A stretch of 63,650 nucleotides of DNA, filler included, from Candidatus Woesearchaeota archaeon (GTDB lineage Archaea; Nanobdellota; Nanobdellia; Woesearchaeales; B72-G16), in NCBI GenBank assembly GCA_003650545.1. It is 3 parts of 3 records of this genome, joined end to end, with 100 filler letters (N's around TTAATTAATTAA, not from the genome) between each part and the next. Parts side by side here need not be neighbours in the genome. Positions count along the whole stretch, not along the records: positions 25,134 to 50,084 come from QMQO01000020.1; 2 more parts are not named here. The stretch is one strand, 5' to 3'. The position numbers were made by a program, and so were the translations under genes. The notes under the pieces are model-generated. The model was not told where the DNA came from. It saw only the letters and a list, made by a program, of their open reading frames with translations, and searched no databases. Shown here in pieces: positions 9,622 through 42,704 of this stretch. Position 1 is the first letter of the stretch. Each line of letters opens with the position of its first letter.

Positions 9622-9739
9622 AAGGAAACAATAATAATAAGATTTGTATATAAATGTTGTATACCACTAAAGAATACTCATTGATATTCATATTCATTGG
9701 TGCTTATTGTACTCATTGGTGCTCCTTGTTAAATCTTAC

Positions 9740-10441
9740 TTAAATCTTCTTAGATTTGCCTGCTTGACTCTGGTTTAAACACCAGTTTTTTTGTTCTTTT
9801 TGAAGGTCTGTGCTCATGTGCATCCTGTTGTGTAAATAAACCTGACTGTAAAATGCACATATATCTAAGCAGGGGTCTGCTAAGCTACAATAGTTGTCTG
9901 GCTTAGTGTAAGAAGCAGGAAGAATAAATTTTGGTTGTTTTGCAAGGCGTACGGCTATAAAATAATCAGATCTACCTTCTAATTTGTTTGTTAGATCTTC
10001 TATTTTTTCAAAAAATGACGATGAAATTTTATTTTCTTTATCTTCTTTAACTTCTTTAATCCTATGATAACCTAGAAGATATGTCCATAATGCTTCATTA
10101 TTTAGGTGTTGTTTTTCTAAAAGAGTGCCCATGTGATATAATATATCATGGTTTGACAAATTTGGGTCGAATTTGTATAACCTATAATTGTAATCAGAAG
10201 CTAGCTTTAGGTAGAATAACGCATCAGAGTTTCTATTTTTGTACATTGCATTTTGCGCTTTATTAAACATATTGCACCTAGAATTTATCAAATCAAAATA
10301 TTCCTCTGAAATTAGGTTATTACTCGCTGTAAATGTTGTATTGTCATCTGAATATTCCGCTGAGATTAAATTATTACTCGCTACTGATAGTGTGATGACG
10401 CATGCTGCTAAAACATTAACTACCATTCTAAGAGTTTTCAA
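9740..10441 (-). CDS. Hypothetical secreted protein, helical/TPR-like, with internal 18-aa-period duplication
   Basis: Signal-like N-terminus; ASNNLISAEY / ASNNLISEEY; TPR-like ILYHMGTLLEKQHLNNEALWTY. Confidence 0.6.
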   Translation of the reverse strand: MKTLRMVVNVLAACVITLSVASNNLISAEYSDDNTTFTASNNLISEEYFDLINSRCNMFNKAQNAMYKNRNSDALFYLKLASDYNYRLYKFDPNLSNHDILYHMGTLLEKQHLNNEALWTYLLGYHRIKEVKEDKENKISSSFFEKIEDLTNKLEGRSDYFIAVRLAKQPKFILPASYTKPDNYCSLADPCLDICAFYSQVYLHNRMHMSTDLQKEQKNWCLNQSQAGKSKKI

Positions 10442-10585
10442 TGTTAAACCTCATTGGAGTTATTATGAAATCAATTATCTTATGAAACCAATTATATGAG
10501 ATCAAAACAAAGTCTATAAAAATTTTTTGTCTCTAGTCTTTCGTCTTAATATCATCTTGTCTTAATATCTTCTTATCGATCTAAA

Positions 10586-10644
10586 CAAAAGGTTTATATA
10601 TAAAAGATAATAATGGATAATAATTGATACTAATTTAGTATCAA
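10586..10644 (+). promoter_or_regulatory. Archaeal BRE/TATA promoter followed by a perfect 10-1-10 palindrome (putative operator)
   Basis: CAAAAGG-TTTATATA (TATA 10593-10600); TTGATACTAA-T-TTAGTATCAA at 10624-10644. Confidence 0.6.
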
Positions 10645-10724
10645 CTGATATATAAATTTAATAATAAAATAAAATAGTAAAAATATTTTAAAATTTTAGA
10701 ATAAAAATATATCAAAAATTAAAG

Positions 10725-11042
10725 ATGAAAAAAGAGAGAAAAAAGAGAAAAGAGAGAAAAGAAAAAAAAGAAAGAAGTGATAGAGGAAGTCGGTTGCCTA
10801 ATTTAGCAACTATATTGATGGTAGAAGATGTTCTAAAGAAATGCAAGTACAAATCTGTAAAAATGTCTGAATTGAAAAAGCTCCTTCCTAAACAGGTCAT
10901 GCACCCAACTCTGAAGATTGTGCTTGACTATCTTTGGGAAAGTGGCAAAATAGAATACACGCCAGATGGAATTAGATGGATCTTTATACACCCAGACCAG
11001 AGAAAAAAACTATTGTCGGGATTCATGGAGGTAATTAAATGA
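10725..11042 (+). CDS. Small winged-helix-like hypothetical protein
   Basis: SELKKLLPKQVMHPTLKIVLDYLWESGKIEY pattern; 3' end abuts the GT4 start. Confidence 0.6.
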   Translation: MKKERKKRKERKEKKERSDRGSRLPNLATILMVEDVLKKCKYKSVKMSELKKLLPKQVMHPTLKIVLDYLWESGKIEYTPDGIRWIFIHPDQRKKLLSGFMEVIK

Positions 11043-12322
11043 AAGTGTTGATGCTTGGCTGGGAATTCCCCCCATATAAAAGTGGTGGATTGGGGACTGC
11101 ATGCAAGGATCTGACTAAAGGGCTTTCTAATAATGGTGTAGACGTAACCTTTGTGATGCCACACCACTCTGGTGTAGATGATAGAGAATTTGTCAGAGTA
11201 ATTGGAACAAAAGGAATGAAAATTAAGATGGGTAAACAAGTTGGTATTAAAAAAGTTAATACAATTTTGACTCCATATATGACTAGCAAATCTTATAAAG
11301 ATTCACACAAAAAAATATATGAGATTGATAAAAAAGAAGTATCAGTTGAATTTGATAAAAATCCTAATTATGATTTTATATATGGTAAAGACCTATTTAG
11401 CGAAGTGCATAGATACACAAAGGCTGTTGAAGAACTGGTTAGATCTGAAGAATTTGACATAATACATGCGCATGACTGGATGACATATAAAGCAGGGCTT
11501 GTCATACGAAAAGTTAGTGGAAAACCTTTGGTTATACATATACATTCAACAGAGTACGATAGAACAGCTGATCATCCAAATCAGAGAATTGAGGAAATTG
11601 AAAGATCCGGCTTAGAAAATGCTGATCACATTATTGCGAATAGCAACTTTACTAAAAATAATGTATTAAGACATTATGGCATTTCTCCTGAAAAGATAAG
11701 TGTTGTCCATTGGGGTATTGAACCAGAGAAAAGTTATTGTGATGATGTTAAATTCAAATCGCCATTTGAAGAGAAGATTGTAATGTTCTTAGGCAGAATA
11801 ACCATACAGAAGGGTCCAGACTATTTTGTTGAGGCAGCAAACAAAGTGTTATTGTTTTATCCTAAAGTTAAATTTGTCGTGGTTGGAACTGGTGATATGA
11901 TGCAGAGAATGATTGATAGAGCTGATGAACTTGGCATCTTAGATAAGTTCGTGTTCACAGGTTTTTTGAAAGAGGAAGCAGTGAATAAAGCGTTCAAGAT
12001 GGCTGATATTTATGTGATGCCTTCTGTATCAGAACCATTCGGTCTTGTTGCGTTAGAAGCGCTAAAGAATAAAACTCCGATCATAATTTCGAAGCAAAGC
12101 GGTGTTTCTGAGGTTGTTAAGCATGCCCTGAAAGTTGATTTCTGGGATATAAATGAAATGACAAACAAAATAGTTAATTTGCTAGAACACAAAGAACTAT
12201 ACCAAGAGTTGCAGGAGAATAGTTATGAGGAGGTTAAGAAGTTTAACTTGGACGAGCCTGCAATGAAATGTAAGGATGTCTATGAAAAAATTTTGAAAAC
12301 TTATAAAGGTGATATTAAGTGA
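11039..12322 (+). CDS. Glycosyltransferase family 4 (glycogen synthase-like)
   Basis: MLGWEFPP..SGGLG, HAHDWMT, HSTEYDR, GRITIQKG, MPSVSEPFGLVALEA. Confidence 0.92.
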   Translation: MKVLMLGWEFPPYKSGGLGTACKDLTKGLSNNGVDVTFVMPHHSGVDDREFVRVIGTKGMKIKMGKQVGIKKVNTILTPYMTSKSYKDSHKKIYEIDKKEVSVEFDKNPNYDFIYGKDLFSEVHRYTKAVEELVRSEEFDIIHAHDWMTYKAGLVIRKVSGKPLVIHIHSTEYDRTADHPNQRIEEIERSGLENADHIIANSNFTKNNVLRHYGISPEKISVVHWGIEPEKSYCDDVKFKSPFEEKIVMFLGRITIQKGPDYFVEAANKVLLFYPKVKFVVVGTGDMMQRMIDRADELGILDKFVFTGFLKEEAVNKAFKMADIYVMPSVSEPFGLVALEALKNKTPIIISKQSGVSEVVKHALKVDFWDINEMTNKIVNLLEHKELYQELQENSYEEVKKFNLDEPAMKCKDVYEKILKTYKGDIK

Positions 12323-12514
12323 TATCTGTGTTGTCTTGCTTGTCTGCTTTGTTTGAATACTTCCGCTATTATAGAAGATTCGTTTATAAGAGTCATATAA
12401 TTTAAACTGAAGATAAAAAAATGAAAATAATGAAAAAGGAGCAGATTAAAGGAAAAGTTAGAGGTAATACAAGAAGTTATTAGTAAAAAAAGTTATTAGA
12501 AGAGGTGATACGAA

Positions 12515-13741
12515 ATGGTCAAGGTTTGTATGTATTTTCAGGTACACCAACCGTATAGAATGCGTAAATATAACATATTTGATGTTGGAAACAATCAGAA
12601 CTATTTTGATGAAAAGAAAAATGTTGAAATACTAAAGAAGATTTCAAAAAAATGTTATCTCCCAACAAATGCTCTTTTATTGAAACTATTGAATAAACAT
12701 GAAAAATTTAAGGTTGCATTTTCATTCTCAGGAGTCTTTCTTGAGCAACTAGAACAATATGAACCAAAGGTTCTAGAAAGCTTTATGAGTTTGGTAAATA
12801 CAGGAAAAGTTGAATTGCTATCAGAAACATACTACCATAGCCTGGCTTATTTATATTCGAAAAGAGAGTTTAAAGAGCAAGTAGATATGCATCGCAATAA
12901 AATTAGAGAATTATTTGGAGTTTCGCCAACTGTTTTTAGGAACACGGAGCTTATATATAATAATGACATGGCTAAGTATGTTGAAAATCTTGGATACAAA
13001 GCCATTCTTTCTGAAGGCGCAGACCATATTCTTGGTTGGAGGAGCCCTAACTTTGTGTATAGACCTATTGGCTGCAACAAGATAAAGGTTTTAATGAAAA
13101 ATTACAGACTTTCAGATGATATTGCTTTTAGATTTTCAGATAGAAAATGGAAAGGGTGGCCTCTTACAGCTGAGAAATTTGCAGGATGGATCAACAATAT
13201 AAACGGGAATGGTGAATGTGTTAATTTGTTTATGGATTATGAAACATTTGGTGAACATCAATGGAAAGATACCGGCATCTTTGAATTTCTTGGAAGATTA
13301 CCTGAAGAAATATTAAAACATCCTGATAATGAGTTTATGATGCCATTAGAGATTGCTAAGTTGAATGCCCGTGATATGATAGATGTACATGAAGTGTTAT
13401 CTTGGGCAGATATAGAGCGCGACTTATCCGCATGGATGGGTAATAGGATGCAACAATCTGCCTTGAAGAGGCTTTACGAACTTGAAAATGATGTTAAGGA
13501 GAGTGGTGACCTGCGTTTGATTGAAAATTGGAGAAGATTGCAAACTAGCGATCATTTTTATTATATGTGTACAAAATGGTTTGCTGATGGAGATGTCCAT
13601 AAATATTTTAATCCGTATGACTCTCCCTATGATTCATTTATCGCCTTTGTTAATATTATAAATGATCTAGTTTTAAGACTTAAGAAATTGAAAGAGAATA
13701 AATGGATAAAAGTCAAACAAAGGGGAGCTAAAGTAGCCTGA
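12515..13741 (+). CDS. Glycoside hydrolase family 57 (alpha-amylase type)
   Basis: FQVHQP, ETYYHSL, FRNTELIY, MDYETFGEH, LQTSDHFYYM; GAGGTGA SD. Confidence 0.93.
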   Translation: MVKVCMYFQVHQPYRMRKYNIFDVGNNQNYFDEKKNVEILKKISKKCYLPTNALLLKLLNKHEKFKVAFSFSGVFLEQLEQYEPKVLESFMSLVNTGKVELLSETYYHSLAYLYSKREFKEQVDMHRNKIRELFGVSPTVFRNTELIYNNDMAKYVENLGYKAILSEGADHILGWRSPNFVYRPIGCNKIKVLMKNYRLSDDIAFRFSDRKWKGWPLTAEKFAGWINNINGNGECVNLFMDYETFGEHQWKDTGIFEFLGRLPEEILKHPDNEFMMPLEIAKLNARDMIDVHEVLSWADIERDLSAWMGNRMQQSALKRLYELENDVKESGDLRLIENWRRLQTSDHFYYMCTKWFADGDVHKYFNPYDSPYDSFIAFVNIINDLVLRLKKLKENKWIKVKQRGAKVA

Positions 13742-13984
13742 ATAGCTAAATTAGTAGAAAAGTTAAAGTTAGTATGAAAAATTTGGTATGATAATCTAAT
13801 TGCTAAAAAAATAATAGCAAAAAAGTAATAACAAAAATATTTTGAAATATTTTGAAAATATAAGAGAAAATAGTGAAAGATGTTGAAAATAGCGGCTTAA
13901 AAAGCGAAAATAATAAAAACCAGAAAAACTAAATCTCGTAAAAAAGGCAGTATTATAGCTAGTATAATAGCTAGTATAGCTAGT

Positions 13985-14803
13985 TTGAAAAAGAGGCGAA
14001 TTAATGTGGAAAATGCTTTAAGGATTCTAGCAAGCACAGAAGGAGATAAAAGATTTTTTGTGAGTGACGGTCAAATAGTCAGCAATCTATACGAGCTTCC
14101 TATAGCTATTAGAAATATGAGTTTAGAAACGTTTTCATATCATGTTAATGCAAACAAGAATGATTTCAGCAACTGGATCAATGATGTGCTTGGAGATAGT
14201 AAACTTGCTTCTGACATAGCAGGGATTCTAGAAAGAGATAATATTATCTCTATATTAGAAGGTAGGCTGAATGAGCTTAATCATATAATCCTTGCAGAAA
14301 ATTTAGTCCAAAAGAATGAAAAACCTGAAGTTGAACCAATTGAACCGATTGTTAAAAAGATCGAGAAAAAAAAACTCACAGACGAATCTGCAATTGTAAA
14401 AGTTGAGAAAAAAATTGATAATAAGAATGTTAAAAAAACTATTAAAGTTACTGTTGCAAAAGCTGGCGATCTTAGAAAAACAAAAACCGGAATAAAGATT
14501 AAGAAAAGAAGTGCAGAGTGTAAAGCAAAGCCAAAGGCCAACAAACCGAAGGTTGGAAAAAAAGCTAAAAAAACTGGAGTTCCTGTTAAAGGAGAAGTGA
14601 AAGAAATAAAAAAGAAAAAAAAAGTAAATGAAGGTGTTGAGCAAGCAATTCAGATATATTCAATTGTTAGGAGACAAAGTATTATAGGCAGTTTGGCTGA
14701 GAATATGAAAAAAGATATGAAGAGTGTTTTTAATAAAGAAAATATTGGACAGTTCTGGAGCGATATTAAGTTTGTGTTTAGTTATTTTAAGTTGAGGCGT
14801 TAA
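13985..14803 (+). CDS. DUF5752-like domain protein with Lys-rich C-terminal region
   Basis: FFVSDG..NLYEL..M..ETFSYHVN..KNDFSNWINDVLGD..LA; start codon uncertain (TTG or a later GTG). Confidence 0.6.
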   Translation: MKKRRINVENALRILASTEGDKRFFVSDGQIVSNLYELPIAIRNMSLETFSYHVNANKNDFSNWINDVLGDSKLASDIAGILERDNIISILEGRLNELNHIILAENLVQKNEKPEVEPIEPIVKKIEKKKLTDESAIVKVEKKIDNKNVKKTIKVTVAKAGDLRKTKTGIKIKKRSAECKAKPKANKPKVGKKAKKTGVPVKGEVKEIKKKKKVNEGVEQAIQIYSIVRRQSIIGSLAENMKKDMKSVFNKENIGQFWSDIKFVFSYFKLRR

Positions 14804-29882: not shown

Positions 29883-30053
29883 TCCCCAGCTCAAATTTTC
29901 GGCATTCTATAAATATTCTGTTAATCGCTACGCACAAGTGATTACTAGTTCTCTACCAGAGTTATTTTTTTGTGTTTACTATTCAAAAGGTTGCAACCTC
30001 CTAACCAAAAGCTTTTAAATACCGCTTATTATTTAAATCATGGACAAGGGAAA

Positions 30054-32132
30054 ATGGCACTGAAATACAAAACAACAAGAGATATCAAAATACCTAAAAA
30101 CATAATCGATCAAGTCATCGGACAAGATGATGCAGTTGCAGTTATAAAGAAAGCTGCAAAACAAAGAAGACATGTTCTCTTAATAGGAGAACCGGGTACT
30201 GGTAAAAGTATGCTTGGTCTTGGCCTAGCTGAATTATTGCCAAAGGAAAAGCTTGTTGATGTTCTCTCGTTCTTTAATCCGAATGATGAAAACCAACCTT
30301 TGATAAGGACTGTTGAAGCTGGCAAAGGCCGCAACCTCGTTGCTAAGTCAAAACTACATGCGACAGGTGTTTTTCGTGGCTATAATTTCCTGTTATTCAT
30401 TCTTGTAATTATTGCTATGATTGCACCATGGTGGGGGTTTAACCATTATTCCAATATTCCTGGAGGAAATCTTCAGATTGGCGCTATCATGTTTGTTGCA
30501 TTATTCATGGGTGGCATGATTTTCTTGGCAGCATTCATATTATTCTTGAATCTTGGCAGGAAAGCAGGCATAAAGACAAATGCGCCAAAGTTAATAGTTG
30601 ATAACTTTGACAAAAAGAAAGTACCTTTCTATGATGCAACCGGGGCACATGCTGGAGCACTGTTGGGGGATGTACTTCACGATCCATTTCAGTGTTTCTT
30701 CCGTTCTCAAATGATAACAAAACTAACAGGCGGAAAGTTAATGAATGTAGAAATAAATAAAGAAATTAATGACTTATTCAACAATTCTAAAAATTTAGAA
30801 AAGAAAGATGGATACGAAGCAGTTTTTCTAAACAAGAACGATCTTGTGGTTCTAGGTGAATCACAAGGTTCAGTTTCGCCTGTTGATGTTTTATCAGCAA
30901 ACAGACATGATTACGAAGGCGAAATGATAAAACTGATGACTTCGGAAAACAAAGAACTAATAGTTACACCCAAACACAAAATAGCACTCTGGAAAAATGG
31001 GAAAATCGTTTATACTGAAGCTAGAGACATTAAAAATGGTGACACAGTTGTCTCAAAAGCTGAAGATATCATAATAGATGAAGACGATATAATTAATACA
31101 TTCAATAGAAAACAACAGAAACAATGTAAATTATACTATCAAAATTTAGATTCCCAACAGAAGAACAAAACCAGCAAGCACAAAAGAATTGAAGTGTCTA
31201 TAGACCAAAAAATAAGAAAAGCTCGATGGTGGCATACTAGAAATACACCTGATCCAGTTCAAATGATCAATTGGTTAAAGAAAAGAAAGTTACTACCTCT
31301 AAAAATAGATAACATAAAACTGCATCTTATCGCAAGGGTTTTGGGGGCCATGTTTAGCAATAACGGAGGAGTAACTGAAAATCTAAATGAGATTTTTTTA
31401 TCAGGCTCTGATAAGGGAGCGATAGTGAATTTTAAAAAGGACATCGAAACTATTTTTAATCTAAATAAAGATGAAAAGTCACAGATAATTGAAGATAAAA
31501 ACCATAAAAACCATGAGCATTCATGGTACTATCAAAATACTAATAAGAGTATGATCAGATTTTTTTTAGCTCTTGGTTTGCCAATCAGTAATAAAAAAAA
31601 TACTGTGCTAAATGTTCCGCAGTGGATTAAATCCAAAGGTGAACTAGAAGACGAATTCTATGGGTCTTTTTTAGGAAGAGAATTATCATCATCGCATAAT
31701 ATAGATAAAAATGAATCAGTAGAATTGAAAGTAGAAATACCTTCTGAAAATCGAAAGATGTTTTTATACCAACTTGCAAACTACTTGCAGAGAAAAGGTA
31801 TCGAGAGCAATACCACGTATATAAAAAATATAAAAAGAGTATCTGAAAAAAGGCTGTCTGAAGATTTAGTATGTAGATTACGGATAAGTACTAAATTTGA
31901 TAATGTTATCAAATTTTTAATGAAAATAACTCTATCTTACTGTGACTACAAAACAGAAAGATTATTCTTAGCATTAAGAAAACAGGCAAAAGATAAAAAG
32001 AAAAAATATTATTCCTTAATAAATCAAGGCTATGGGGCAGAAAATGTGATGAGATTATTGAAGTTAACTCCCAATTCACTCTATTTGTTGTTAAACTACT
32101 TAGAAGAAAAAAGTGAGGGAGCTACAACTTGA
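30054..32132 (+). CDS. lonB: LonB protease N-terminal part fused to N-intein with degenerate LAGLIDADG endonuclease
   Basis: DQVIGQD, Walker A GEPGTGKS, two TMs, [17 protein letters not shown] then intein Cys1 at 30693; start moved to ATG 30054. Confidence 0.88.
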
Positions 32133-32245
32133 AACTCACAAAACAAACAATAACTGATGTAAAGAAGATTCATTATAAAGGGAAATTATATAATGTTACA
32201 ACTAGCTCAGGCAATATCATCGTTAATGGTGTTTTATGTTCAAAC
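30693..32245 (+). mobile_element. Intein in lonB, split into a 479-aa N part (30693-32129) and a 39-aa C part (32129-32245)
   Basis: DPFQ/CFF N-junction, block [10 protein letters not shown], block F LYNVTT, C-junction [14 protein letters not shown]; same site as Thermococcales Lon inteins. Confidence 0.85.
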
Positions 32246-33490
32246 TCAGGTGGATTAGGAACACCTGCGCATGAGCGGGTTGTTGCCGGTATGATACACA
32301 AAGCAAATATGGGTGTTCTATTCATTGACGAAATTGCTACACTGCAACCCGCAACTCAGCAGGAACTATTAACAGCGCTGCAAGAAGGCAAATATTCTAT
32401 CACAGGACAGTCCGAACGTTCGGCAGGAGCTATGGTTAGGACAGAACCTGTGCCATGTAACTTCATTCTTGTTGCTGCAGGTAATGTTGAAACAGTGCAA
32501 CGTATGCACCCTGCACTGCGTTCTAGAATTAGAGGGTATGGCTACGAGGTTTTTATGTCTGATACGATGAAGGATACACCGGCTAACAGGGATAAGATTG
32601 TTGTGCTGGTTGCTCAGGAAGTTGCCAAGGATAAGAAAATTCCGCATTTTTCGAAAGAAGCTGTTGGCGGCATAATTGAAGAAGCCAGAAGAAGAGCTAA
32701 CAGAAAAGGTCATCTTACATTAAGGCTGCGTGAGTTAGGTGGTCTTATAAGAGCAGCAGGTGATATTGCTGTTGAGCAAAAAGCAAAGGTTGTAGAACTT
32801 AAGCATATAAAGCAAGCATTAAAGATTGCTCGCACATTAGAGCAACAGATGGCTGACAAATCCATCGAGCGGAAAAAAGAGTACGAGGTCATTGTTACAA
32901 CAGGAAAAATTATTGGTAGAGTTAATGGTCTTGCAGTGATGGGATCTGGTGAAACATTCTCAGGGATCATACTGCCAATTGAATCCGAAGTTGTTCCAGG
33001 TGGTAAAGAACGTGCAATTATTGCAACTGGCAAGCTTGGCGAGATTGCGAAAGAAGCAGTGAAGAATGTTTCAGCCATTATTAAAAAATATTTTGGAATG
33101 GACATCAAAGAAAAGTTTGATATTTATGTACAGTTCTTGCAGACTTATGAAGGCGTGGAGGGTGACTCTGCCAGCATAGCCGTTGCAACATCAATTATTT
33201 CAGCTTTAAAAAAAATACCAGTAAGGCAAGATACAGCAATGACAGGCTCGCTATCTGTAAGAGGAGAGGTCTTGCCGGTTGGTGGTATTAGCTACAAAAT
33301 TGAAGCTGCTATAGACGCAGGCATGAAACGTGTTATAGTGCCAAAATCGAATGTGCAAGATATTGTGATTGAGAAAACCAGATTAGAAAGGATCAAGGTT
33401 ATTCCTGTTACTAATATTTCTGAAGTTTTGAAGGAAGTACTTGATTGGACAGGTAAAAAGGATGTTCTTAAGGTGATTATGAAAAAATAA
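32129..33490 (+). CDS. lonB: C-intein fused to LonB C-terminal part (Walker B, sensor region, protease domain)
   Basis: TTG start overlapping the TGA stop, [27 protein letters not shown], catalytic EGDSAS and KIEAA. Confidence 0.88.
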
Positions 33491-33613
33491 AAAATACCAA
33501 ATTTTATATATCAAATTTTATTGATTAATATCAATAATAATCAAAATAAAAGAAAAAAAATTGCACCCTTTTTCGTTTTTTTTTACATTACTACTATTCT
33601 TTATTACTATTCT

Positions 33614-34729
33614 TTATTTCGGGCACATTCTATTCCAAGCAGTTATCGCAGCTCTTCTGTTATCATACTCATTTTTATGTGCAAACAACCACCTATTCTT
33701 CGCTTGCTCACTACAAGGATTGAATGCAGCAGGTTGTTGTACAGCAGATTGCTGATTATAACCACTTAGACCTGATTGTTGGTAGTTTTGTGGTTGAGCA
33801 GCTGGTTGTTGTTGTGGCTTATTTTTTGCATTTAACTCTTTTTTAAGATGGTTGATCTGCCTTGTGTATTCTGCTTTTATATTTTGGATTTTTTGTTCAG
33901 CAGATTGAATATCTGTTTCTGCTTTAGCCAAGTCTGACCAAACACCAGCCATAATTTTTTCCATTTGTGGTCCATAGCTGTTTAGGGCATTCCATTCCCA
34001 GTCATTAAGACCGTCATCAATTATAATCTGTTCCTGACACTGATCCTTAGATATACTTCTCAAGTTACAGTATGACAAAAACCATTCGCCCAATGTCTCT
34101 CTACCAACAGCAGCATTTGTATACTGTACTAGGATTTCTAGTGAAGCCATGCCTGTTTTCAAGTCATTGTACTCTTTCCAGTCTGCTGCAAGTTTGTCGT
34201 AGTCAGATTGTAGGGCTTCTTTGTTTTCAGGATTATTTGCTAATTGTGCTTTAATATCTACATACTCTTCTGCCCTTGAGCTAAGCGTCTGGATTCTATT
34301 TTTTGTGTACTCACAAGACATTCCTGCATTATAGTTAATATTTGTGTTATCTTTACAATGCTCCTTTGCAAACAATAATGTTCTATCGATAGGTTTAAGT
34401 TCCTCGGACTCTTTTGACAAAACATGCATAGCTCGGATACCTTTTGTCGTTGTCCATCTGTGAAACAAATCGCTTTTATAATAAGTATAAGTCAATATAC
34501 CGCCAGCTATAACAAGCGGTGATAGAACAGACGCGACAATCTTTGTTACTTTTTTCCATTTATCAGCCTCTTCGTCAGATATCTCATGAGCATGCTGTGT
34601 GGTCGATTTGCTTTGGCGAAGAGCTATCCCTGCTTCATCTTTCGCTGTAGTAGCTCTAAAATCTTGTTTACCTCCTCCTTGTCCTGCTGTCATACCGACT
34701 GGTGTAACAGTTTCATTTTCATTTTCCAT
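33614..34729 (-). CDS. Hypothetical single-pass membrane protein with coiled coils and Gln-rich C-terminal linker
   Basis: TM IVASVLSPLVIAGGILTYTYY; heptad-rich segments; PQQQPAAQPQ; GGGGG SD; 26 nt downstream of the MinD-like gene. Confidence 0.7.
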   Translation of the reverse strand: MENENETVTPVGMTAGQGGGKQDFRATTAKDEAGIALRQSKSTTQHAHEISDEEADKWKKVTKIVASVLSPLVIAGGILTYTYYKSDLFHRWTTTKGIRAMHVLSKESEELKPIDRTLLFAKEHCKDNTNINYNAGMSCEYTKNRIQTLSSRAEEYVDIKAQLANNPENKEALQSDYDKLAADWKEYNDLKTGMASLEILVQYTNAAVGRETLGEWFLSYCNLRSISKDQCQEQIIIDDGLNDWEWNALNSYGPQMEKIMAGVWSDLAKAETDIQSAEQKIQNIKAEYTRQINHLKKELNAKNKPQQQPAAQPQNYQQSGLSGYNQQSAVQQPAAFNPCSEQAKNRWLFAHKNEYDNRRAAITAWNRMCPK

Positions 34730-34755
34730 TTTGATATACCCCCTAATTCTAGTAA

Positions 34756-36465
34756 TTATTTAACATAATCAGGCACGATCCTTCTTGGTGGAATACCTAA
34801 CCTAGTAGCTCGTGCCACCTCCTCATTCTTAACCCCTGGAAGATAATGTTTGATTAGTTTTCTGTGCTTTGCTCTTGCTTTAGGAACTTCGCGTCTATAT
34901 CTTCTTAGATATTTTCTCAAGTGTCTATGATCTTTGTGTCTTAACCTAGGATCTCTTATAAGTGCAAACTCAACATCCTTTAGGATGTTATTTTCATGCT
35001 CATAAAGTATGCTTGCGTTAGGAGCGTATTGTAGTATGTCTTTAGTCCACATCACATCAAGCAGCCTCTTAAATACAAAGTGTCCAGCATCAACAATGTC
35101 AGTCATACTAGGGCGGATTTTTGCCCACTCTGAACGATAATCAACCTTGTCCCAATAACAACCCCCATAAATTCCTCTTGGGTCTTCATCGTGTAATGAT
35201 ACATCTGGATCTTCAGGTAAACTACCTATGTTATAGAAAGTTACCATATGTTTAGTGCTACATCTTTTATTTAGATCATTAACATAGTTATCTCCTGTGT
35301 CTATGTCTGATTTATTAAATATCAATGCAATCTTGTTATTAAAGCGTTTTCCGAATACATCATTAATCTTACCTGCAAAAAGCCTTTCTATATTTTCCAC
35401 AACAGGACCATACTTTTTGCCCAATTCATCGAAGAGCTCTTTATTCTTTTTCAATTCATCAATTCTTTCAGATATAGAGTGACAGTAATCTGTCTCTAAT
35501 ATTATGTTTTGTATGATTTTACTTTTTTGATCTGAATTGAAGTTGCCTTCAATTAGTATCTCTGCATTATCATACAAGTATGCTATCTGAATTCCAGCAA
35601 TAAAACTATCAAGATCGCTTAAACATGCTGGTGTTGGATTAACAGCATAGACCGGAATATCAGAATTACAAAATCGAACCTTAGCATTTTCGTCTAAGCC
35701 AGCACCAACAGCTTCAAAGATGAAATCAACATCAAGCTCAGCTTCCTGTTCAGTTAGTTTTTTTAAACCTTTTATCAACTCTCTTCTCCGTGAATCGAAT
35801 ATTGGGATGCCAAGATTAAAATTTTTTGGTCCAGGCGCAAAATAGAAGTTTCCTGCATCTACTAAATTTGTAATATTACCCTGTTCATCATATTCCAATG
35901 GTTCTCTTATTCTTATTGTTTGATATATTCCGTCTACAAATGCGCGAAACTCATAAACTGTTTTCCTTCTTTTTATGTGTCTTAAGGTATCCTTAATATG
36001 AACTGGTCTAATTATTTTACCATCTGCGTCAATTATATTTTTTTGATATATAACATCACCAATATGTAAGAATTTATTTGGGTTTTCAAAATCCCTCATG
36101 TTATTGTGAATATCCATATCAGAGAATGAAAGATCACCATCAACCAGAACAACTTTATAGCCACATCTCGCAGCAATACTTGAGAGTATTATTGCTGTTA
36201 TATCTTTACCAGAACCACCTTTTCCTGCAGCTATCATAACTTTTCTTGGTCTCTCGATAATATTTTTAGGTATAACCCTTTTTGTTTTTTCAAAATGTTC
36301 TATATCTGATTTATTTAACTGTATTTTTTTTTCAGGAATATTCCATGGTTTTGTGCGCTTGAAACCTTTTATCCATGTTGGTTCTCCATTTTTCCAACTG
36401 CATCTAACACGATCTTCTAGATATAATTCTTGTCCAATCTTCATTTCTTCAGTATTTGTTGCCAT
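34756..36465 (-). CDS. Atypical MinD/FlhG/ParA-family P-loop protein with insertions
   Basis: AAGKGGSGKD, KVVLVDGD, FIFEAVGAG, VNPTPACLSD, LIFNK, IGSLPEDPDV. Confidence 0.75.
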   Translation of the reverse strand: MATNTEEMKIGQELYLEDRVRCSWKNGEPTWIKGFKRTKPWNIPEKKIQLNKSDIEHFEKTKRVIPKNIIERPRKVMIAAGKGGSGKDITAIILSSIAARCGYKVVLVDGDLSFSDMDIHNNMRDFENPNKFLHIGDVIYQKNIIDADGKIIRPVHIKDTLRHIKRRKTVYEFRAFVDGIYQTIRIREPLEYDEQGNITNLVDAGNFYFAPGPKNFNLGIPIFDSRRRELIKGLKKLTEQEAELDVDFIFEAVGAGLDENAKVRFCNSDIPVYAVNPTPACLSDLDSFIAGIQIAYLYDNAEILIEGNFNSDQKSKIIQNIILETDYCHSISERIDELKKNKELFDELGKKYGPVVENIERLFAGKINDVFGKRFNNKIALIFNKSDIDTGDNYVNDLNKRCSTKHMVTFYNIGSLPEDPDVSLHDEDPRGIYGGCYWDKVDYRSEWAKIRPSMTDIVDAGHFVFKRLLDVMWTKDILQYAPNASILYEHENNILKDVEFALIRDPRLRHKDHRHLRKYLRRYRREVPKARAKHRKLIKHYLPGVKNEEVARATRLGIPPRRIVPDYVK

Positions 36466-36529
36466 TTTCCCCCAGATAATTATTATAGATTCCTTATAAA
36501 TCCCCCCTCTTTACGATTAGGAAGTGGTG

Positions 36530-36597
36530 AATATTTATAAATGTTTCGTTTTCTGCTTTCTGCTACTTCCCAGATGTGATTCGAAAGATTTAAATAG
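36530..36597. promoter_or_regulatory. Divergent archaeal promoters for the two MinD/ParA-like genes
   Basis: Minus strand CGAAACATTTATAAAT (about 36532-36547); plus strand CGAAAGATTTAAATA (36582-36596); both genes have GGGGG SD motifs. Confidence 0.65.
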
Positions 36598-36638
36598 ACT
36601 TTTATTTATCAACTTTATAGTAGCAAATAAATGGGGGA

Positions 36639-39455
36639 ATGATACTATTGTCTCTAGAAGCAAAAGTTAATCAAGAAGCAGCAAAAACTCTGTTCGCTGT
36701 TCCAGAAATATTGCATCTAGAGTTTGCTTTAAATGACACACCTTTTAACACGCAGATACTTGGTATGTTTAACTCAAAAGGTGGTTGTGGTAAGAGCCTT
36801 GTTATTCAAAATACAGCAATAGAGTGCTCCGAGTTTCCAAGCCATAAATGGTGTGCTAGGATTGATAACTTTAATAGTCTTTCACATGGAGAATACACAT
36901 TAGAGTATGAGATTGAATATAAGTTTGGTTGTGAGAAAAAAAATGTTTTAAAACGTAGACAAACAATTAAAATAATTAATGGACAGATGCAGGTGATAGG
37001 TTATGAAGGTAGGGTTTTACCTATGATGGAAAAGATTCCAACAGTTGAAAAGTGGAGTTCTAGCTTTTTGAATCAGAACACATTGTATAATCGATTAATC
37101 TTAAAGGGAAAGGATGGAAGAGTCCTCAAACTTCATAATTATTCCATTAAAGGAATAAACTACACATTGTATAATAAAAACAATTGTGTTGTTAGTTCTG
37201 GTAAATTCGAAGAAAAAGAACCAGAGGACTTAATCATTGACTTGGATTTTGCAATGGGCGCTGCTGAACAACAGTTAAAAGGAATGAAACAAGGCGGTCT
37301 TAAAAATCCTCTAATATACAGAAAGGACTCTAAGAAACTAGTAGATCTACTGTTAAAGAAAGATTTTCGCGGATTTTTTCAAACCATCCAGAAGCATTAT
37401 AACCCTATTAAGTTTACAAACAAGCCCATACCGCCAGCTAAGGTCGGCCATACGTATGATAACGTAACAGTTATAACAACTAAACCAGACGTAAGTCTTA
37501 TGCACGATCCTCAATTTGTGCAGTACATAAAAAAGATCATACAAGGTATTGCTGACACAGGATACTTTGATAGAATTCATATAGATACTGCTGCAAATTT
37601 CTCCCCATTGCATGCTGAAGTGCAGGAGATAACAGACAAGACTTTGGTTTCAGCAAGTTTTGAACCTGTTGACATGTATGGCGGCTATAACTATTTTCAA
37701 GAAGTTTTGAGCTATCATGCTTTAAAATCTTTGCCAAGCATAGGTAGGATTGCAGCGATTGCCTATGATTTCACTAAAGACCAACTAAAAAAACAATTTG
37801 AGTCAGAACTTAAAAAAGAAACAATGAATATTGTTGAAAAATCTCTAAATAAACATTCAAGATATGCAAAGCAACGTATGAAAGATGTTGAAAATTTTTT
37901 GAATAAGGATATATCAAATATACGTCCAGATGTCGCACAAGATATTGACTATAATATGAGAGATGTATTTAGGCAGATATTTTTTAAATACGTACATGAA
38001 AAAAATAATTTCATACAAGATGAATTGAGTCTTGACACAATTGAAAAAGATTTGAAGTCTGTGTCTGCTTTTGAATTAAACAATGATCAAGTTAGAGCTG
38101 CACTCAAAAATAGAAAACTAACAGAGCCTGAGATCGAGCGTTTGGTTAGTTCTGATTCCTTCAAGAACATGCTAGGAATTGATGGAATGACAGACGAAGA
38201 CATAAGGATGGAATACATTAAAAGGGACCTTACCCTTAAAGAGATTGAGCTTTTTGTAAAGCACGAACCACTGAGGAAGATACTCTATTTGCCATGTTTT
38301 GATTTTAGATCTTATGCTTTGAGACTGGGAGAGGCTATAACCGATTATTTAGTTAATCAATACGCTAAGAATGATAACTCATTATACAAAGTTGCTTTTG
38401 AAGTCAAAGAATCTATCAAATCCATAGATTGTCTGGATCACGGGGTTCTTAACAACCTATCATTGAAAGATGATGAAGATACTGTGGCATACTTTGGCCT
38501 GATCGAACATTACAAACAGGCATTCAAGAACATACATCTATTTAGAACAACCAAGCCAGAGCTTCAAGAGCTGTGTGCAGACTTTCAATCTATTATTTCT
38601 TCTATCAGGCAAACTCTAATTGAAGATATTCGTAAAAGAAAACAAACGGATATTGGTTTGGATTTAGTAAATCAAATTCTGGCAATCCACACCACTAATA
38701 ATAAGATCCATGAAGAATACGGAAAAAAAGAAGTTTTAATTGATGTAAGAGACAATAATACAGGAAAGATAGAATCCAGGAGATATCCTTTAACTCACAA
38801 GATTTATGATGATCTGAGAGGAATTTTTCCACTTAAACATGTTATTAGTGCGATGAGTGCTTGCGATGTTTATGCTAAAGAAAATCTCATTCCTTCAAAC
38901 ATACACCCTGCAATTGTTCCTGAGTTTAACAGAAGGAAGGCAGGTGCAGATGATTACAAACTTGTTATAAATATGGAGCCTACGAGCAAGATGTCTGAAA
39001 GGGTAAGCTCTATTTTGGGAGATGACGAAGTGATTGCAGCAGAAGCAGAGGTACATAAGGTTCAAGTTCCCACAAAAGAATTGTTATATGACAGAGCGAT
39101 GTTCTTTAAATATCTTGTATGGAGAGCCTTTGGTTTAAACGGACAGTGTATTGGTTCTATTCCTATAGATCCGCACGTTCCAACAATATGTAAAGAGAAA
39201 GGTTATGCTAGAACATGTTTAAGTGGGTATGGTCCTACTTTTACAGATAGAATGAAATTGGTTGCAGCAGGTGTTAAATACGACCTAAACTCACACGATT
39301 ATTTCTGTACAGTTACCTGTTTGAATGATTCGTCAGGAATCGGCAACATAAATATTGCACAGAAAGCGCTTAAATTATTTAGAATCAAAACAGACAAGAA
39401 AAAGATAGATCTCAGTGTTGTTGGAAAGATTGATATTCACACACCTGTAAAGTAA
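36639..39455 (+). CDS. Giant MinD/ParA-family ATPase with two large insertions
   Basis: FNSKGGCGKS, LIIDLD, FDRIHIDTAA, VSASFEPVD, KLVINM, IGSIPIDPHV spread over 938 aa. Confidence 0.72.
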   Translation: MILLSLEAKVNQEAAKTLFAVPEILHLEFALNDTPFNTQILGMFNSKGGCGKSLVIQNTAIECSEFPSHKWCARIDNFNSLSHGEYTLEYEIEYKFGCEKKNVLKRRQTIKIINGQMQVIGYEGRVLPMMEKIPTVEKWSSSFLNQNTLYNRLILKGKDGRVLKLHNYSIKGINYTLYNKNNCVVSSGKFEEKEPEDLIIDLDFAMGAAEQQLKGMKQGGLKNPLIYRKDSKKLVDLLLKKDFRGFFQTIQKHYNPIKFTNKPIPPAKVGHTYDNVTVITTKPDVSLMHDPQFVQYIKKIIQGIADTGYFDRIHIDTAANFSPLHAEVQEITDKTLVSASFEPVDMYGGYNYFQEVLSYHALKSLPSIGRIAAIAYDFTKDQLKKQFESELKKETMNIVEKSLNKHSRYAKQRMKDVENFLNKDISNIRPDVAQDIDYNMRDVFRQIFFKYVHEKNNFIQDELSLDTIEKDLKSVSAFELNNDQVRAALKNRKLTEPEIERLVSSDSFKNMLGIDGMTDEDIRMEYIKRDLTLKEIELFVKHEPLRKILYLPCFDFRSYALRLGEAITDYLVNQYAKNDNSLYKVAFEVKESIKSIDCLDHGVLNNLSLKDDEDTVAYFGLIEHYKQAFKNIHLFRTTKPELQELCADFQSIISSIRQTLIEDIRKRKQTDIGLDLVNQILAIHTTNNKIHEEYGKKEVLIDVRDNNTGKIESRRYPLTHKIYDDLRGIFPLKHVISAMSACDVYAKENLIPSNIHPAIVPEFNRRKAGADDYKLVINMEPTSKMSERVSSILGDDEVIAAEAEVHKVQVPTKELLYDRAMFFKYLVWRAFGLNGQCIGSIPIDPHVPTICKEKGYARTCLSGYGPTFTDRMKLVAAGVKYDLNSHDYFCTVTCLNDSSGIGNINIAQKALKLFRIKTDKKKIDLSVVGKIDIHTPVK

Positions 39456-39493
39456 ACAAATTATCAACAACATAACAACATAAACAAAAATTA

Positions 39494-40474
39494 TTATCGC
39501 CAGATGACATTAACATCATCTGTTCTTTCATATGGTTTAATTTCAGATTTTTCAACTTTAATTTCGCTGCCAGCATTAAACATCTGTACACCAGTCAAAG
39601 CGATCATAGCAGCGTTATCAACATTAAATTCATTTGGCAAAACATAACATCGAGCACCACGTTCCTTGCACATCTGTTTAGCCATCTCTTGTAAACGGGT
39701 GTTACATGCAACACCCCCGCCAAGCAACAACTCCTGTTTTCCAGTGTGAGCCATTGCGCGTTCACTAACCTCAACAAGCATTGCAAAGATGTGCTCTTGC
39801 ATAGAGTAACAGAGGTCCTCTTTAGTGAATTTGCCTGTTATGTACTTCTGTTTTAGATTAGTCAAAAGGCCGCCAAAGCTGACATCCATACCTTTGACAG
39901 AGTATGGAAGTTCTATTAGTTTTTTGCCGTGCTTAGCTAGTTCTGCTATTTTTGGTCCGCCTGGAAAACCTAAATCAAGGAAGCGAGCAAAAGAGTCAAT
40001 TAGATTACCAACACCTTGGTCTAATGTTTCGCCAAAAATTCTATATTTACCTGCTTCATAAGCTATGATTTGTGTGTTTGCACCACTTACATATAGCAGC
40101 ACAGGATCTTTTGCTTTTGTTAATGCACGCCCCACTTCAAGATGGGCAATGCAGTGATTGACGCCAACCAATGGTTTTTTTAGAAGGATTGATAGTGTTC
40201 TTGCCATCATTGCCCCAATTCTAAGGGTATGACCTAGCCCTGGTGATATAGAGAATGCTATAAGTTGTATGTCTCCTAGTTTAACATTAGCTCTCTTTAA
40301 TGCAGATTTAAGAACTTGGTCACAGACTTCTACATGATGTTTAGCTGCTAGATTTGGCACAATACCGCCGTGTTCTGTTGTGAAGCTCTTTATTTCATTT
40401 GAGAGCACTTTGTTATTATTAGCTATCGCTATTCCAAATGTGTGAGCAGTTGATTCTACGCCTAAGCAGATCAT
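39494..40474 (-). CDS. kae1: tRNA N6-adenosine threonylcarbamoyltransferase Kae1
   Basis: LGVESTAHT, VNHCIAHLE, LYVSGANTQ, GETLD, GGGVACN, DNAAMIA. Confidence 0.95.
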   Translation of the reverse strand: MICLGVESTAHTFGIAIANNNKVLSNEIKSFTTEHGGIVPNLAAKHHVEVCDQVLKSALKRANVKLGDIQLIAFSISPGLGHTLRIGAMMARTLSILLKKPLVGVNHCIAHLEVGRALTKAKDPVLLYVSGANTQIIAYEAGKYRIFGETLDQGVGNLIDSFARFLDLGFPGGPKIAELAKHGKKLIELPYSVKGMDVSFGGLLTNLKQKYITGKFTKEDLCYSMQEHIFAMLVEVSERAMAHTGKQELLLGGGVACNTRLQEMAKQMCKERGARCYVLPNEFNVDNAAMIALTGVQMFNAGSEIKVEKSEIKPYERTDDVNVIWR

Positions 40475-40802
40475 TTTTTATTCGAGGCATTAATTTATCA
40501 ATCCATTTATCAATCCTTTTGTCTACTTAAAAGCTGTTAAAAGCTGCTTTTTCATTCTTTTAGGTTATATCTCAAACTTAATTCGCTGTATTTATTAATG
40601 CTTATGTTTACTAATTATTTACTGATTACCTTTCATGTATTTCAATGCTTTCACAATTTCAATACTCTCATGTAAATATCTTCATATATAGTTAGTATTC
40701 TTTCTACTTCTAATATTAGAATTTAGAGGTTTTATATAACTGTTGGTTTTTCCGGTATCATCACAAAAACATATATAAAGAAGTTATACTTGTATCATAT
40801 CT

Positions 40803-42704
40803 ATGGATGACGATCTAAAATTCATAGTAGATGTAGCTAGCGAGTACAACCCTCGTTTTAAGAAAGAACTAGTTATAAAAGCATACAATTTTGCTAAGGA
40901 AGCCCATAAAGGTCAAAAACGCATCTCAGGAGAAGATTATTTCGTGCATCCTGTTGAGACTGCAAAAATATTGCTTGAGTTAAAAGCCGATTCATATACT
41001 TTATGTGCAGCGCTGCTACATGATGTGATTGAAGAAACATCTGTAACAAAAGAAGAAGTAGTTAAGATGTTTGGTGACGAAATTGCAGGACTGGTAGAAG
41101 GTCTAACTCATATAGAAAAAATACACTTCAAGAATAAGGAAGACTATACTGCAGAAAATCTCAGGAAGATTTTGCTTGCCACTTCTAAGGATATTCGTAT
41201 AATCTTGATAAGACTATCTGACAGGCTACATAACATGCGGACTTTGAAGTATCTACGCCCAGATCAACAAAAAAGAATAGCACAAGAAACATTGACTATA
41301 TACGCGCCTATAGCTTACAAACTAGGTTTGATGAAGATTAAAGGAGACCTAGAAGATCTTTCATTAAGGTTCTTAAAGCCAGAGGTTTATAAAAAAATCA
41401 CTGAGAGAATCAAAGAGAAGAGAGAAGCACGTGAGAAATATGCAGAGAGAGTTATGGAGTTTCTTAAAGAGAAACTAAAAGAAGAAAATATCCCTGCAAA
41501 GGTTACAGGAAGAGCCAAATATTTCTACAGCATCTATAGAAAGATGACTAAAAGGAATGTGCCTATTGACGAGATCTATGATTTAATCGGCATAAGAATC
41601 GTGACACAGACCATTCCACAATGCTATGCTGCTCTAGGTCTTGTACACAAAATCTGGAGACCTATGCCAGGAAAGTTTAAGGATTATATTTCTGTGCCAA
41701 AAGCAAATGGTTATCAGTCTCTGCACACAACCGTTGTAACAGAAGATGGTCGTGTATTAGAAGTACAGATAAGGACAGAAGAGATGGACCTAATTGCAGA
41801 AGAGGGTATTGCAGCACATTGGCGCTACACAGGCAGAGAGCGTGACAAAAGATTCGACCAAAAAATTAACTGGCTCAAGCAGCTTCTCTATTGGAAATCA
41901 AGTGAGGACGCAAAAGAATTTATAGAAACCTTTAAGTTTGATCTCTTTGAGAAAGAGATTGTTGTGTTTACACCAAAAGGTGATCCAATCTCTCTGCCTG
42001 AAGAGTCTACGCCAGTTGATTTCGCATTTGAGATACACACTAACCTCGGCAAGCAGTGTTCAAAGGCAAAGGTGAATGGTAATATTGTTCCTCTCAATTA
42101 TATCTTGAAAAGTGGGGATATTGTAGAGATAGTAACATCAAACAAGGCAAAACCTAGCAGACAGTGGCTTACGTTTGTTAAAACGAGCAAGGCAAGACAG
42201 AGAATAAAACAAGAACTTGGCATAGAATCTGTAAGATCGTCAAAGCTAAAAGAAAGAGAAGCACAAGGTGTCCTCAGAAACATAATTGTTGAAAGCAGAA
42301 GGCCTGCTAAACTTTCAAAATGCTGCTCGCCAGAGTATGGTGATGAGATCAAGGCTTTCTTAACAAAGGATGGAAAGGTCACAATACATAAAGCTGATTG
42401 CGAGAATATTCACACATTGGAGAAGAAAAAGGAAATCGGAGTAAGGTGGAGAGTCATACCAAAACTTGATTCTACTGATATCATAGTAGTTGTCAGGGAT
42501 AGGGTTGGTATGCTTTCAAATATTTTGACTGTTATTTCTAAAATGGGCATACATATAACTTCTGTTAAGTCAGAGATGAGAGGCGGCAGATTCAAATTAG
42601 TTATTGGCTTAAAGACTAAGGAGAAGTCTGTTGTTAAGCAGATCCTAGATAATCTGCGTGTTCTAAAAGACGTGATTGACGCAAAGATTTCTGACCTACC
42701 TTAA
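40803..42704 (+). CDS. Long RelA/SpoT homologue (HD, synthetase, TGS, ACT domains)
   Basis: H.GQKR.SGE.Y..HP, ALLHDVIE, DRLHNMRT, KFKDY, YQSLHT, EVQIRT, G.AAHW.Y, VFTPKG/TPVDFAF, KCCSP, ACT-like DRVGML. Confidence 0.93.
   Translation: MDDDLKFIVDVASEYNPRFKKELVIKAYNFAKEAHKGQKRISGEDYFVHPVETAKILLELKADSYTLCAALLHDVIEETSVTKEEVVKMFGDEIAGLVEGLTHIEKIHFKNKEDYTAENLRKILLATSKDIRIILIRLSDRLHNMRTLKYLRPDQQKRIAQETLTIYAPIAYKLGLMKIKGDLEDLSLRFLKPEVYKKITERIKEKREAREKYAERVMEFLKEKLKEENIPAKVTGRAKYFYSIYRKMTKRNVPIDEIYDLIGIRIVTQTIPQCYAALGLVHKIWRPMPGKFKDYISVPKANGYQSLHTTVVTEDGRVLEVQIRTEEMDLIAEEGIAAHWRYTGRERDKRFDQKINWLKQLLYWKSSEDAKEFIETFKFDLFEKEIVVFTPKGDPISLPEESTPVDFAFEIHTNLGKQCSKAKVNGNIVPLNYILKSGDIVEIVTSNKAKPSRQWLTFVKTSKARQRIKQELGIESVRSSKLKEREAQGVLRNIIVESRRPAKLSKCCSPEYGDEIKAFLTKDGKVTIHKADCENIHTLEKKKEIGVRWRVIPKLDSTDIIVVVRDRVGMLSNILTVISKMGIHITSVKSEMRGGRFKLVIGLKTKEKSVVKQILDNLRVLKDVIDAKISDLP

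Follow-up and report, generated by a model that had tools for sequence, protein, structure and literature searches.

ParA/MinD ATPases are textbook spatial organisers of prokaryotic cells, and in the case of FlhF and FlhG two SIMIBI NTPases act together at the membrane. Here we describe a locus of a member of the DPANN archaea, also called Nanobdellati, in which two very large ParA/MinD-like proteins are encoded together with a membrane protein. It lies at positions 33614-39455 of a 63,650-nucleotide stretch of DNA from Candidatus Woesearchaeota archaeon (GenBank assembly GCA_003650545.1, the genome under study, hereafter G000), the whole stretch being hereafter called the window, and consists of three intact open reading frames (ORFs) of 371, 569 and 938 amino acids (aa), flanked by the convergent genes lonB and kae1. 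The two larger products are called below ATPase B (569 aa) and ATPase A (938 aa). The trio is inherited, lineage-restricted and extremely fast-evolving: three genes of the same architecture occupy the same site in a related genome, G002, and their products have diverged beyond recognition while the flanking proteins remain 72-79% identical.

The nearest published frame for this cassette, as far as the accessible part of the source goes, is provided by the ParA conflict systems of Li, Burroughs and Aravind (preprint 10.64898/2026.10.19.760177), who propose that such ATPases have been recruited into immunity. The accessible part of that text presents ParA systems that evolve fast and carry variable inserts following strand beta2; PCTM, in which ParA is fused to single-pass receptor-like architectures; and a system with a carbohydrate-binding module (CBM) that has either a second ParA, inactive and evolving rapidly, or a single-pass protein whose ectodomain evolves fast. 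One ParA system is confined to Nanobdellati. As these systems (PCTM, CBM-containing and ParA-HeH) are described there, the trio shares with them the rapidly diverging ParAs with variable inserts, the link to single-pass proteins with fast-evolving ectodomains and, with one variant, a second and probably inactive ParA. It differs from them in that its transmembrane protein is the product of a separate gene, in its archaeal host, in the absence from Pfam scans of any CBM, HeH, wHTH, HEPN or other effector, and in its vertical-looking inheritance between housekeeping genes.

MinD (CbiA, PF01656; TIGR01969; PDB 1hyq, 1g3q and 1ion) has in common with the cassette ATPases the deviant Walker A motif with its signature lysine, the DxD of switch I and the P-loop SIMIBI fold. 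Both MinD and FlhG bind the membrane via a C-terminal amphipathic helix, according to the accessible part of the same preprint (Li et al., 10.64898/2026.10.19.760177); an equivalent basic segment is clear in the 516-aa protein of G002 and plausible in ATPase A (residues 905-916), whereas ATPase B has a basic tail instead. The cassette ATPases are two to four times longer than MinD, with large inserts and extensions, and score far under the minD_arch cut-off; neither MinC nor MinE is encoded next to them, the magnesium site of ATPase B is altered, and they are paired, associated with a membrane protein and extremely fast-evolving. FlhG/FleN (PDB 5j1j, 7ejw and 4rz2) gives the best structural matches to the model of ATPase B (TM-score by target 0.57-0.67), but its sequence identity to that protein is 11-12% and the model derives from a MinD-rich alignment; moreover, the cassette has no flagellar or archaellar context, and both of its partners are of the ParA/MinD type, neither being a GTPase of the signal recognition particle type. 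With ParABS and SegAB the locus shares a ParA-type ATPase, phrog_164 matching the P-loops, but it has no centromere-like repeat arrays and no ParB/SegB-type gene in the block or its flanks (SegB not having been searched by sequence).

Layout of the trio between lonB and kae1

The three ORFs, the 173-bp spacer between the divergent genes for ATPase A and ATPase B, the gap of 26 nt between the latter and the 371-aa gene, and the lonB and kae1 flanks are exactly as given in the initial annotation of the sequence. The end of lonB lies 123 nt before the block and that of kae1 38 nt after it. The features of the locus, in window coordinates, are the following.

33614-34729, minus strand: predicted single-pass (type II) membrane protein of 371 aa, with one hydrophobic segment at residues 61-82 (Kyte-Doolittle value, KD, 1.93) and all 6 Cys beyond it.
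33620-33742, minus strand: C-terminal Cys-flanked module of the same protein, residues 330-370, with 68% identity over 41 residues to paralogue P0004 (G000:C15:9327-10367).
34756-36465, minus strand: ATPase B, 569 aa, of predicted ParA/MinD fold with a 73-aa N-terminal extension, two inserts and a 140-aa C-terminal extension (Pfam CbiA, a custom MinD hidden Markov model, HMM, and an AlphaFold2, AF2, model compared with Foldseek).
34759-34953, minus strand: basic C-terminal tail of ATPase B, residues 505-569 (28 Lys, Arg or His among the last 70 residues).
35698-35733, minus strand: Walker B region of ATPase B, DVDFIFEAVGAG, with Ala252 in the Asp column and Glu251 preceding it (alignment A1 and HMM alignment).
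36202-36225, minus strand: Walker A of ATPase B, GKGGSGKD, residues 81-88, with Asp88 where Ser or Thr is expected (PDB sequence matches, alignment A1 and motif position).
36466-36638, no strand assigned: divergent intergenic spacer of 173 bp, with AT-rich TATA-like boxes and G5 runs beside both starts (putative promoters, judged by eye from the sequence).
36639-39455, plus strand: ATPase A, 938 aa, a ParA/MinD-like orphan in which the deviant Walker A, switch I and Walker B are intact and two large inserts are present (ORF, ESM Atlas, phrog_164 and hhalign).
36774-36797, plus strand: Walker A of ATPase A, SKGGCGKS, residues 46-53 (sequence, motif position and hhalign P-loop match).
36831-37223, plus strand: insert 1 of ATPase A, about residues 65-195 (about 130 aa), between the P-loop helix and the LIIDLD strand of switch I (placed by sequence; beta strands in a low-confidence AF2 model only).
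37566-37598, plus strand: Walker B of ATPase A, FDRIHIDTAAN, with Asp316 (hhalign E 0.0024; custom HMM domain 267-337).
37722-38948, plus strand: insert 2 of ATPase A, about residues 362-770 (about 400 aa), before the YKLVINM strand and the IGSIPIDPHV motif (mostly helix as predicted in a low-confidence model; boundaries by eye).
39351-39386, plus strand: basic, amphipathic stretch close to the C-terminus of ATPase A, residues 905-916, NIAQKALKLFRI (hydrophobic moment 0.76, the 95th percentile of the protein being 0.56).

The G5 runs, previously taken for Shine-Dalgarno motifs, are indeed present ahead of the three ATGs, but at distances of 1, 3 and 9 nt, two of which are atypical for that function. 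In its own record the locus lies at about 8481-14322 (G000:C20). The window comprises at least three contigs (C19, C20 and C35) joined by N letters, 176 in all, and its neighbourhoods break at about 25034 and about 50100, the assembly as a whole having 1.64 Mb and being 85% complete. A Logan contig of 24,977 nt, probably assembled from the source sample, spans positions 29970-42704 with 0 differences. In GC content and codon usage the three genes all fall within the range of the genome, and the codon-usage distance of the gene for ATPase A is the lowest among 84 ORFs of similar length. The ORFs at the locus include neither an integrase nor ParB, Rfam and tRNA scans of the window gave no match, and the flanking direct repeats that might resemble att sites are only short, chance-length matches. 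The earlier observation that no ParB, MinE, flagellar or integrase gene is adjacent was correct.

A trio of the same architecture in a related genome

The positions of Kae1 and LonB were determined in 136 relatives from the same order, each family being represented by one or two genomes, and their coordinates were tallied by hand. The two genes are convergent on one contig and at most 13 kb apart in 45 of these relatives; the gap between them is below 1 kb in 26 (the unpublished genome G132 included) and larger in the remaining 19, of which 17 were read, the other two being of 1.1-1.2 kb and too small for the trio. ParA-like genes occur in the gap of a single one of the 45 relatives, G002, where the three genes that the initial annotation had proposed as a unit have counterparts of the same architecture; synteny thus provides a second instance of their co-occurrence.

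In G002, gene A encodes a protein of 516 aa with the Walker A motif VKGGVGKT (hhalign to MinD 97%, E 4e-11), and gene B, 141 nt after it, one of 514 aa with LKGGTGKT, the residues 47-475 of which match CbiA profile positions 1-124 of 125. The third gene, 33 nt further downstream, codes for a 326-aa protein having an N-terminal tail, one hydrophobic segment, a PT-rich linker and an end with four Cys. The order kae1 - A - B - membrane protein - lonB is common to both genomes, only A being inverted in G000. Some traits are shared at the level of architecture: the A-type proteins of both genomes have Asp in Walker B (IHID and VHD), and the B-type proteins have Glu in or beside that position (FIFE-A and VVLE-T). 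The CbiA match of both B-type proteins covers a domain that is split after the post-Walker-B helix, and both A-type proteins, as judged by eye, carry an insert at the same place. The C-terminus of the 516-aa protein, KKKGFLSRLFS, resembles MinD tails of the order (KKGFFARLFGM).

Between the two genomes Kae1 is 72% and LonB 77-79% identical, and a maximum-likelihood tree of Kae1 and LonB from 21 genomes splits G000 and G002 from the other 19 with an ultrafast bootstrap (UFBoot) of 86 in this unrooted, two-protein analysis. No pair of cassette proteins of G000 and G002 is significantly similar by BLASTP with shuffled controls, the best being 569 versus 514 aa (z 2.2; the score was reached in 4 of 100 shuffles), and the same holds for all pairs among the four large ATPases. 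Across 301 genomes of the order, in which PF01656 has 1346 matches, the 514- and 516-aa ATPases of G002 gave P-loop matches to ordinary-sized proteins or none, and ATPase B at most P-loop matches to proteins of that size, unpublished genomes (G112, G132 and G205) being included in the latter comparison. Cassette-like genes are also missing from the 3' flank of kae1 in 20 additional relatives and from that of lonB in 20; in G013 an ordinary MinD of 271 aa is encoded 3 kb from lonB.

Neither the 569-aa protein nor the 514-aa protein of G002 has relatives in the viral contigs queried. In PADLOC none of the window's three proteins had a significant match (the strongest was Cas2a for ATPase A, E 0.014, 13.7 bits), and the 514-aa protein of G002 had one P-loop match. 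Overall, no full-length match to a described family was found in Pfam, NCBIfam, PDB, PADLOC or PHROG, a point on which the initial annotation had called for a check, and literature searches on ParA/MinD in DPANN archaea and on MinD in Woesearchaeota showed no description of the trio, in the latter case among the papers listed. Besides the trio, G000 encodes an ordinary 237-aa MinD and FtsZ elsewhere.

The gap between lonB and kae1 is itself variable among relatives (L024-L028, L095-L107), extending from 11 bp to about 13 kb with cargo that is unrelated between families, for example ORFs of 787 and 709 aa, TrmB-like regulators and membrane proteins.

The three proteins and their neighbours

ATPase A has no recognisable relatives: an exhaustive phmmer search of 1.84 billion representative proteins and a word-index search of 5.8 billion clusters returned only the protein itself, 40 relatives contained no homologue (one match being at chance level), and NCBIfam, PDB sequences and Pfam, the latter queried with the whole protein and five pieces, gave no match. 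Its P-loop, the order of its motifs and its neighbours in protein-language-model space nevertheless point to membership of ParA/MinD. The family phrog_164, 'ParA-like partition protein', matches it with E 4e-5 and is the only library family matching both ATPases, at their P-loops. Compared by hhalign with a 17-row MinD profile, residues 31-65 with the P-loop align with profile positions 8-42 (77%, E 2e-5) and residues 293-344 with Walker B align with positions 109-158 (E 0.0024); a third match, of residues 833-853 with positions 201-221, is not significant (E 0.21), and the three are collinear. An order-specific HMM gave 3e-5 for four targets, with a domain at 267-337. In the ESM Atlas the protein has a feature score of 0.92, with 182 of 256 features shared, and its ten best named clusters are all ParA/MinD; the corresponding model, with a predicted local distance difference test score (pLDDT) of 0.43, yields TM-scores by target of 0.45-0.76 against these clusters (0.60-0.76 for the best five rows), from alignments of 225-300 residues scattered over residues 1-938. 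AF2 without an alignment gave an unusable model (pLDDT 32.6).

The MinD/ParA motifs and large inserts previously reported for ATPase A are found as such, with intact motifs, including the DxD of switch I (IIDLDF), and inserts of about 130 and about 400 aa, neither of which contains a Pfam family. The hydrophobic moment of the segment near its C-terminus compares with values of 0.75-0.87 for MinD tails from the same order.

ATPase B is, as judged from its Pfam match and modelled structure, a ParA/MinD-fold ATPase; its magnesium-site residues are altered. It matches Pfam CbiA (PF01656) with E 1.9e-9 and 38 bits, above the cut-off of 25.4, residues 76-423 corresponding to profile positions 1-116 of 125; since these residues fill only 116 profile positions, the domain is interrupted by inserts. 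A custom HMM, derived from 37 of the order's ordinary MinD/ParA proteins, which are 222-303 aa long, scores it at 1.7e-15, and its matches among PDB sequences are MinDs, in the P-loop region only. The NCBIfam scores are well under the cut-offs: 30.6 bits versus 201.75 for minD_arch (TIGR01969), 26.2 versus 212.9 for minD_bact (TIGR01968) and 20.5 versus 180 for ParA_partition. The word-index search of 5.8 billion clusters returned only the protein itself. The motif set formerly ascribed to this protein is retained in part: both lysines of the deviant Walker A and the DxD of switch I (LVDGDL, its Asp109 being invariant across alignment A1) are in place, but Asp replaces Ser/Thr at position 88 and Ala252 stands where Walker B should have its Asp. 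The Walker A coding stretches (KGGxGK) of the two genes form, on opposite strands, an 18-nt inverted repeat that is 94% complementary (36206-36223 and 36776-36793).

The AF2 model of ATPase B, obtained with alignment A1 (22 rows), has a confident core within an overall pLDDT of 57 and a predicted TM-score (pTM) of 0.58. Foldseek relates it to FleN, MinD and the ATPase-type HypB with TM-scores by target of 0.60-0.67, bearing in mind that a MinD-rich alignment underlies the model; the alignments have about 405-420 columns for targets of 230-270 residues. The predicted extra parts include about 50 residues after switch I and an all-helical stretch at about 279-370, between strands 270-275 and 378-384. 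The first insert has a faint, non-significant lead to AMPK1_CBM (E 0.19 with the whole protein and 0.048 with the piece), and the C-terminal tail contains no Pfam family.

The 371-aa protein probably has its body, with the 6 Cys, outside the cell and an N-terminal tail of about 60 aa in the cytoplasm, because its bulk and all 6 Cys come after the membrane helix. The body consists of a Q-rich linker and a 41-residue Cys-flanked end module. Of the description of this protein as a single-pass coiled-coil protein, the single hydrophobic segment is retained, while the sole basis for the coiled coil is weak Pfam matches. In the word-index search of 5.8 billion clusters it found itself and one paralogue, G000:C15:9327-10367, which has 8 Cys and no adjoining ATPase. 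This paralogue adjoins another Cys-containing membrane protein, of 200 aa (both at G000:C15:9324-11104, outside the window), which suggests a small genome-specific family of surface proteins.

As to the neighbours of the trio, the flanking genes code for LonB and Kae1/TsaD, and ribosomal protein S3Ae is also among the archaeal genes nearby. LonB is encoded at 29970-33490 (plus strand) by two ORFs and is interrupted within an intein: the 720-aa ORF contains the N-terminal half of LonB followed by a Cys and an Intein_splicing domain, and the 453-aa ORF begins with about 38 intein residues followed by the remainder of LonB. In G038, G013 and G020 LonB is broken likewise, with a 4-nt overlap or a 3-nt gap, whereas G011 has a single frame of 1085 aa; judging from these sequences, the break looks like a naturally split, trans-splicing intein kept in at least four families and not like a sequencing error. 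On the other side, kae1 is adjoined in this archaeon by a long RelA/SpoT homologue (633 aa, with HD_4, RelA_SpoT, TGS and ACT domains; 40803-42704, plus strand). A 641-aa ORF beside kae1 in G016 (L060 8-1933) has an N-terminus resembling that of this homologue, and beside kae1 of G008 lie, in a row, five co-directional large ORFs that lack a Walker A pattern (634, 295, 449, 629 and more than 227 aa; L056, G008:C5:15789-22800).

Possible origin and function of the trio

The simplest history of the trio is that it was acquired, or arose, once in the common ancestor of the two families and that all three genes then diverged very rapidly with the layout kept. Regarding its function, we favour, at somewhat less than an even chance, the interpretation that it is a vertically inherited, lineage-restricted cassette that works as an ATP switch associated with the membrane and coupled to a protein of the cell surface. 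ATPase A, with all its catalytic motifs kept, would form dimers with ATP and be located at the cytoplasmic side of the membrane, to which it may bind via the MinD-like amphipathic segment near its C-terminus. ATPase B, with its altered magnesium site (Asp88; Glu251/Ala252) and basic tail, could be a slow or non-hydrolysing partner or a regulator. The 371-aa protein would be co-transcribed with ATPase B, its cytoplasmic tail of roughly 60 aa providing the link and its Cys-bearing body pointing outward. We infer dimerisation, membrane binding, coupling between the proteins and a role of the trio at an interface under diversifying selection, namely host-cell or virus contact at the envelope. Such an interface is suggested because the trio has diverged beyond recognition between genomes with conserved flanking proteins; that it may be a contested one, serving host contact or virus defence, is suggested by the rarity of the locus, its speed of change, the outward Cys-bearing protein and the ordinary MinD and FtsZ that the genome encodes elsewhere. 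The same four points speak against a core role in division or segregation.

Several observations weigh against the proposal of a surface-coupled switch. The homology of the trios of G000 and G002 is deduced from position, architecture and a tree (unrooted, of two proteins, with support 86), not from sequence, and the hydrophobic segment of the 326-aa protein in G002 is borderline (KD 1.59). For most of ATPase A, the ParA/MinD label derives from a low-confidence language-model structure (pLDDT 0.43) and weak collinear matches, and its amphipathic segment stops 22 residues short of the C-terminal end. The paralogue of the 371-aa protein is not beside any ATPase, and therefore the 371-aa protein may act independently. 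Finally, the cytoplasmic ATPases have diverged as much as the exposed protein, which a simple arms race of surface proteins does not predict.

The main rival explanation, which we consider rather unlikely, is a ParA-centred immune system in which the membrane protein would sense a virus or mobile element at the envelope, the ParA-like pair would block the intruder by switching or polymerising and the large, variable inserts would be recognition or effector surfaces. The likeness to the fast-evolving ParA conflict systems in the accessible part of the preprint (10.64898/2026.10.19.760177) argues for it, as do the extreme divergence and rarity of the locus and the different cargo that the lonB-kae1 gap carries in other genomes; on the other hand, no system named in that part of the preprint has the trio. 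An effector, for example a nuclease, TIR or HEPN domain, is not recognisable in Pfam scans of the proteins and their pieces, although the inserts may conceal one; the AMPK1_CBM match within the insert of ATPase B is not significant (E 0.048-0.19) and none of the three window proteins has a significant match in PADLOC (best Cas2a, E 0.014). The neighbours are housekeeping and not defence genes, and the vertical-looking inheritance and native codon usage likewise speak against this explanation.

Classical positioning is quite improbable. A heteromeric MinD/ParA pair would here serve the division site, the chromosome or a fixed surface organelle, in the manner of MinCDE, ParABS/SegAB or FlhF-FlhG, the last being a generally known precedent of paired SIMIBI NTPases; the predicted MinD/FlhG-like fold of ATPase B and the MinD-like C-terminal amphipathic tails are consistent with this. 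Yet 44 of the 45 relatives that share the flanking genes were not found to carry the trio, genes for ParB, MinC/MinE or an archaellum do not adjoin it, ATPase B reaches 30.6 bits with minD_arch, for which the cut-off is 201.75, and core positioning proteins do not normally diverge past recognition while Kae1 and LonB stay above 70% identity. The role in division-site placement or DNA segregation envisaged in the initial annotation is unlikely, because only one of the 45 relatives carries the trio and the genome has an ordinary 237-aa MinD and FtsZ elsewhere.

That the trio is what is left of a plasmid or viral partition module, inserted between lonB and kae1 and now decayed and drifting, is very improbable, since, for all that ParA-like genes are common on mobile elements, that phrog_164 is the only library family matching both ATPases and that the gap varies between genomes, all six genes (three per genome) are long intact ORFs in AT-rich DNA with gene order kept in two lineages and native codon usage, while the locus has no integrase, ParB or tRNA, its flanking direct repeats are only of chance length, and the 569-aa protein and the 514-aa protein of G002 have no relatives on viral contigs.

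Returning to the surface-coupled switch, the locus presents a paired, heavily expanded form of ParA/MinD tied to a surface protein in a member of the DPANN archaea, a group about whose cell-contact and virus-defence biology very little is known. It also illustrates clearly how two sister lineages can retain genes at one site although the sequences of these genes have diverged past the point of detection. Orphan status combined with positional conservation implies that homology searches undercount such systems, which can in practice be found by synteny, with conserved flanking genes such as lonB and kae1 serving as anchors. More tentatively still, and with considerable doubt, the trio may represent an unrecognised class of DPANN modules, passed on vertically but changing so fast that orthologues of sister families no longer align and visible by synteny only, in which two insert-laden ParA/MinD ATPases and a type II surface receptor would serve hypervariable recognition of hosts or viruses at the envelope.

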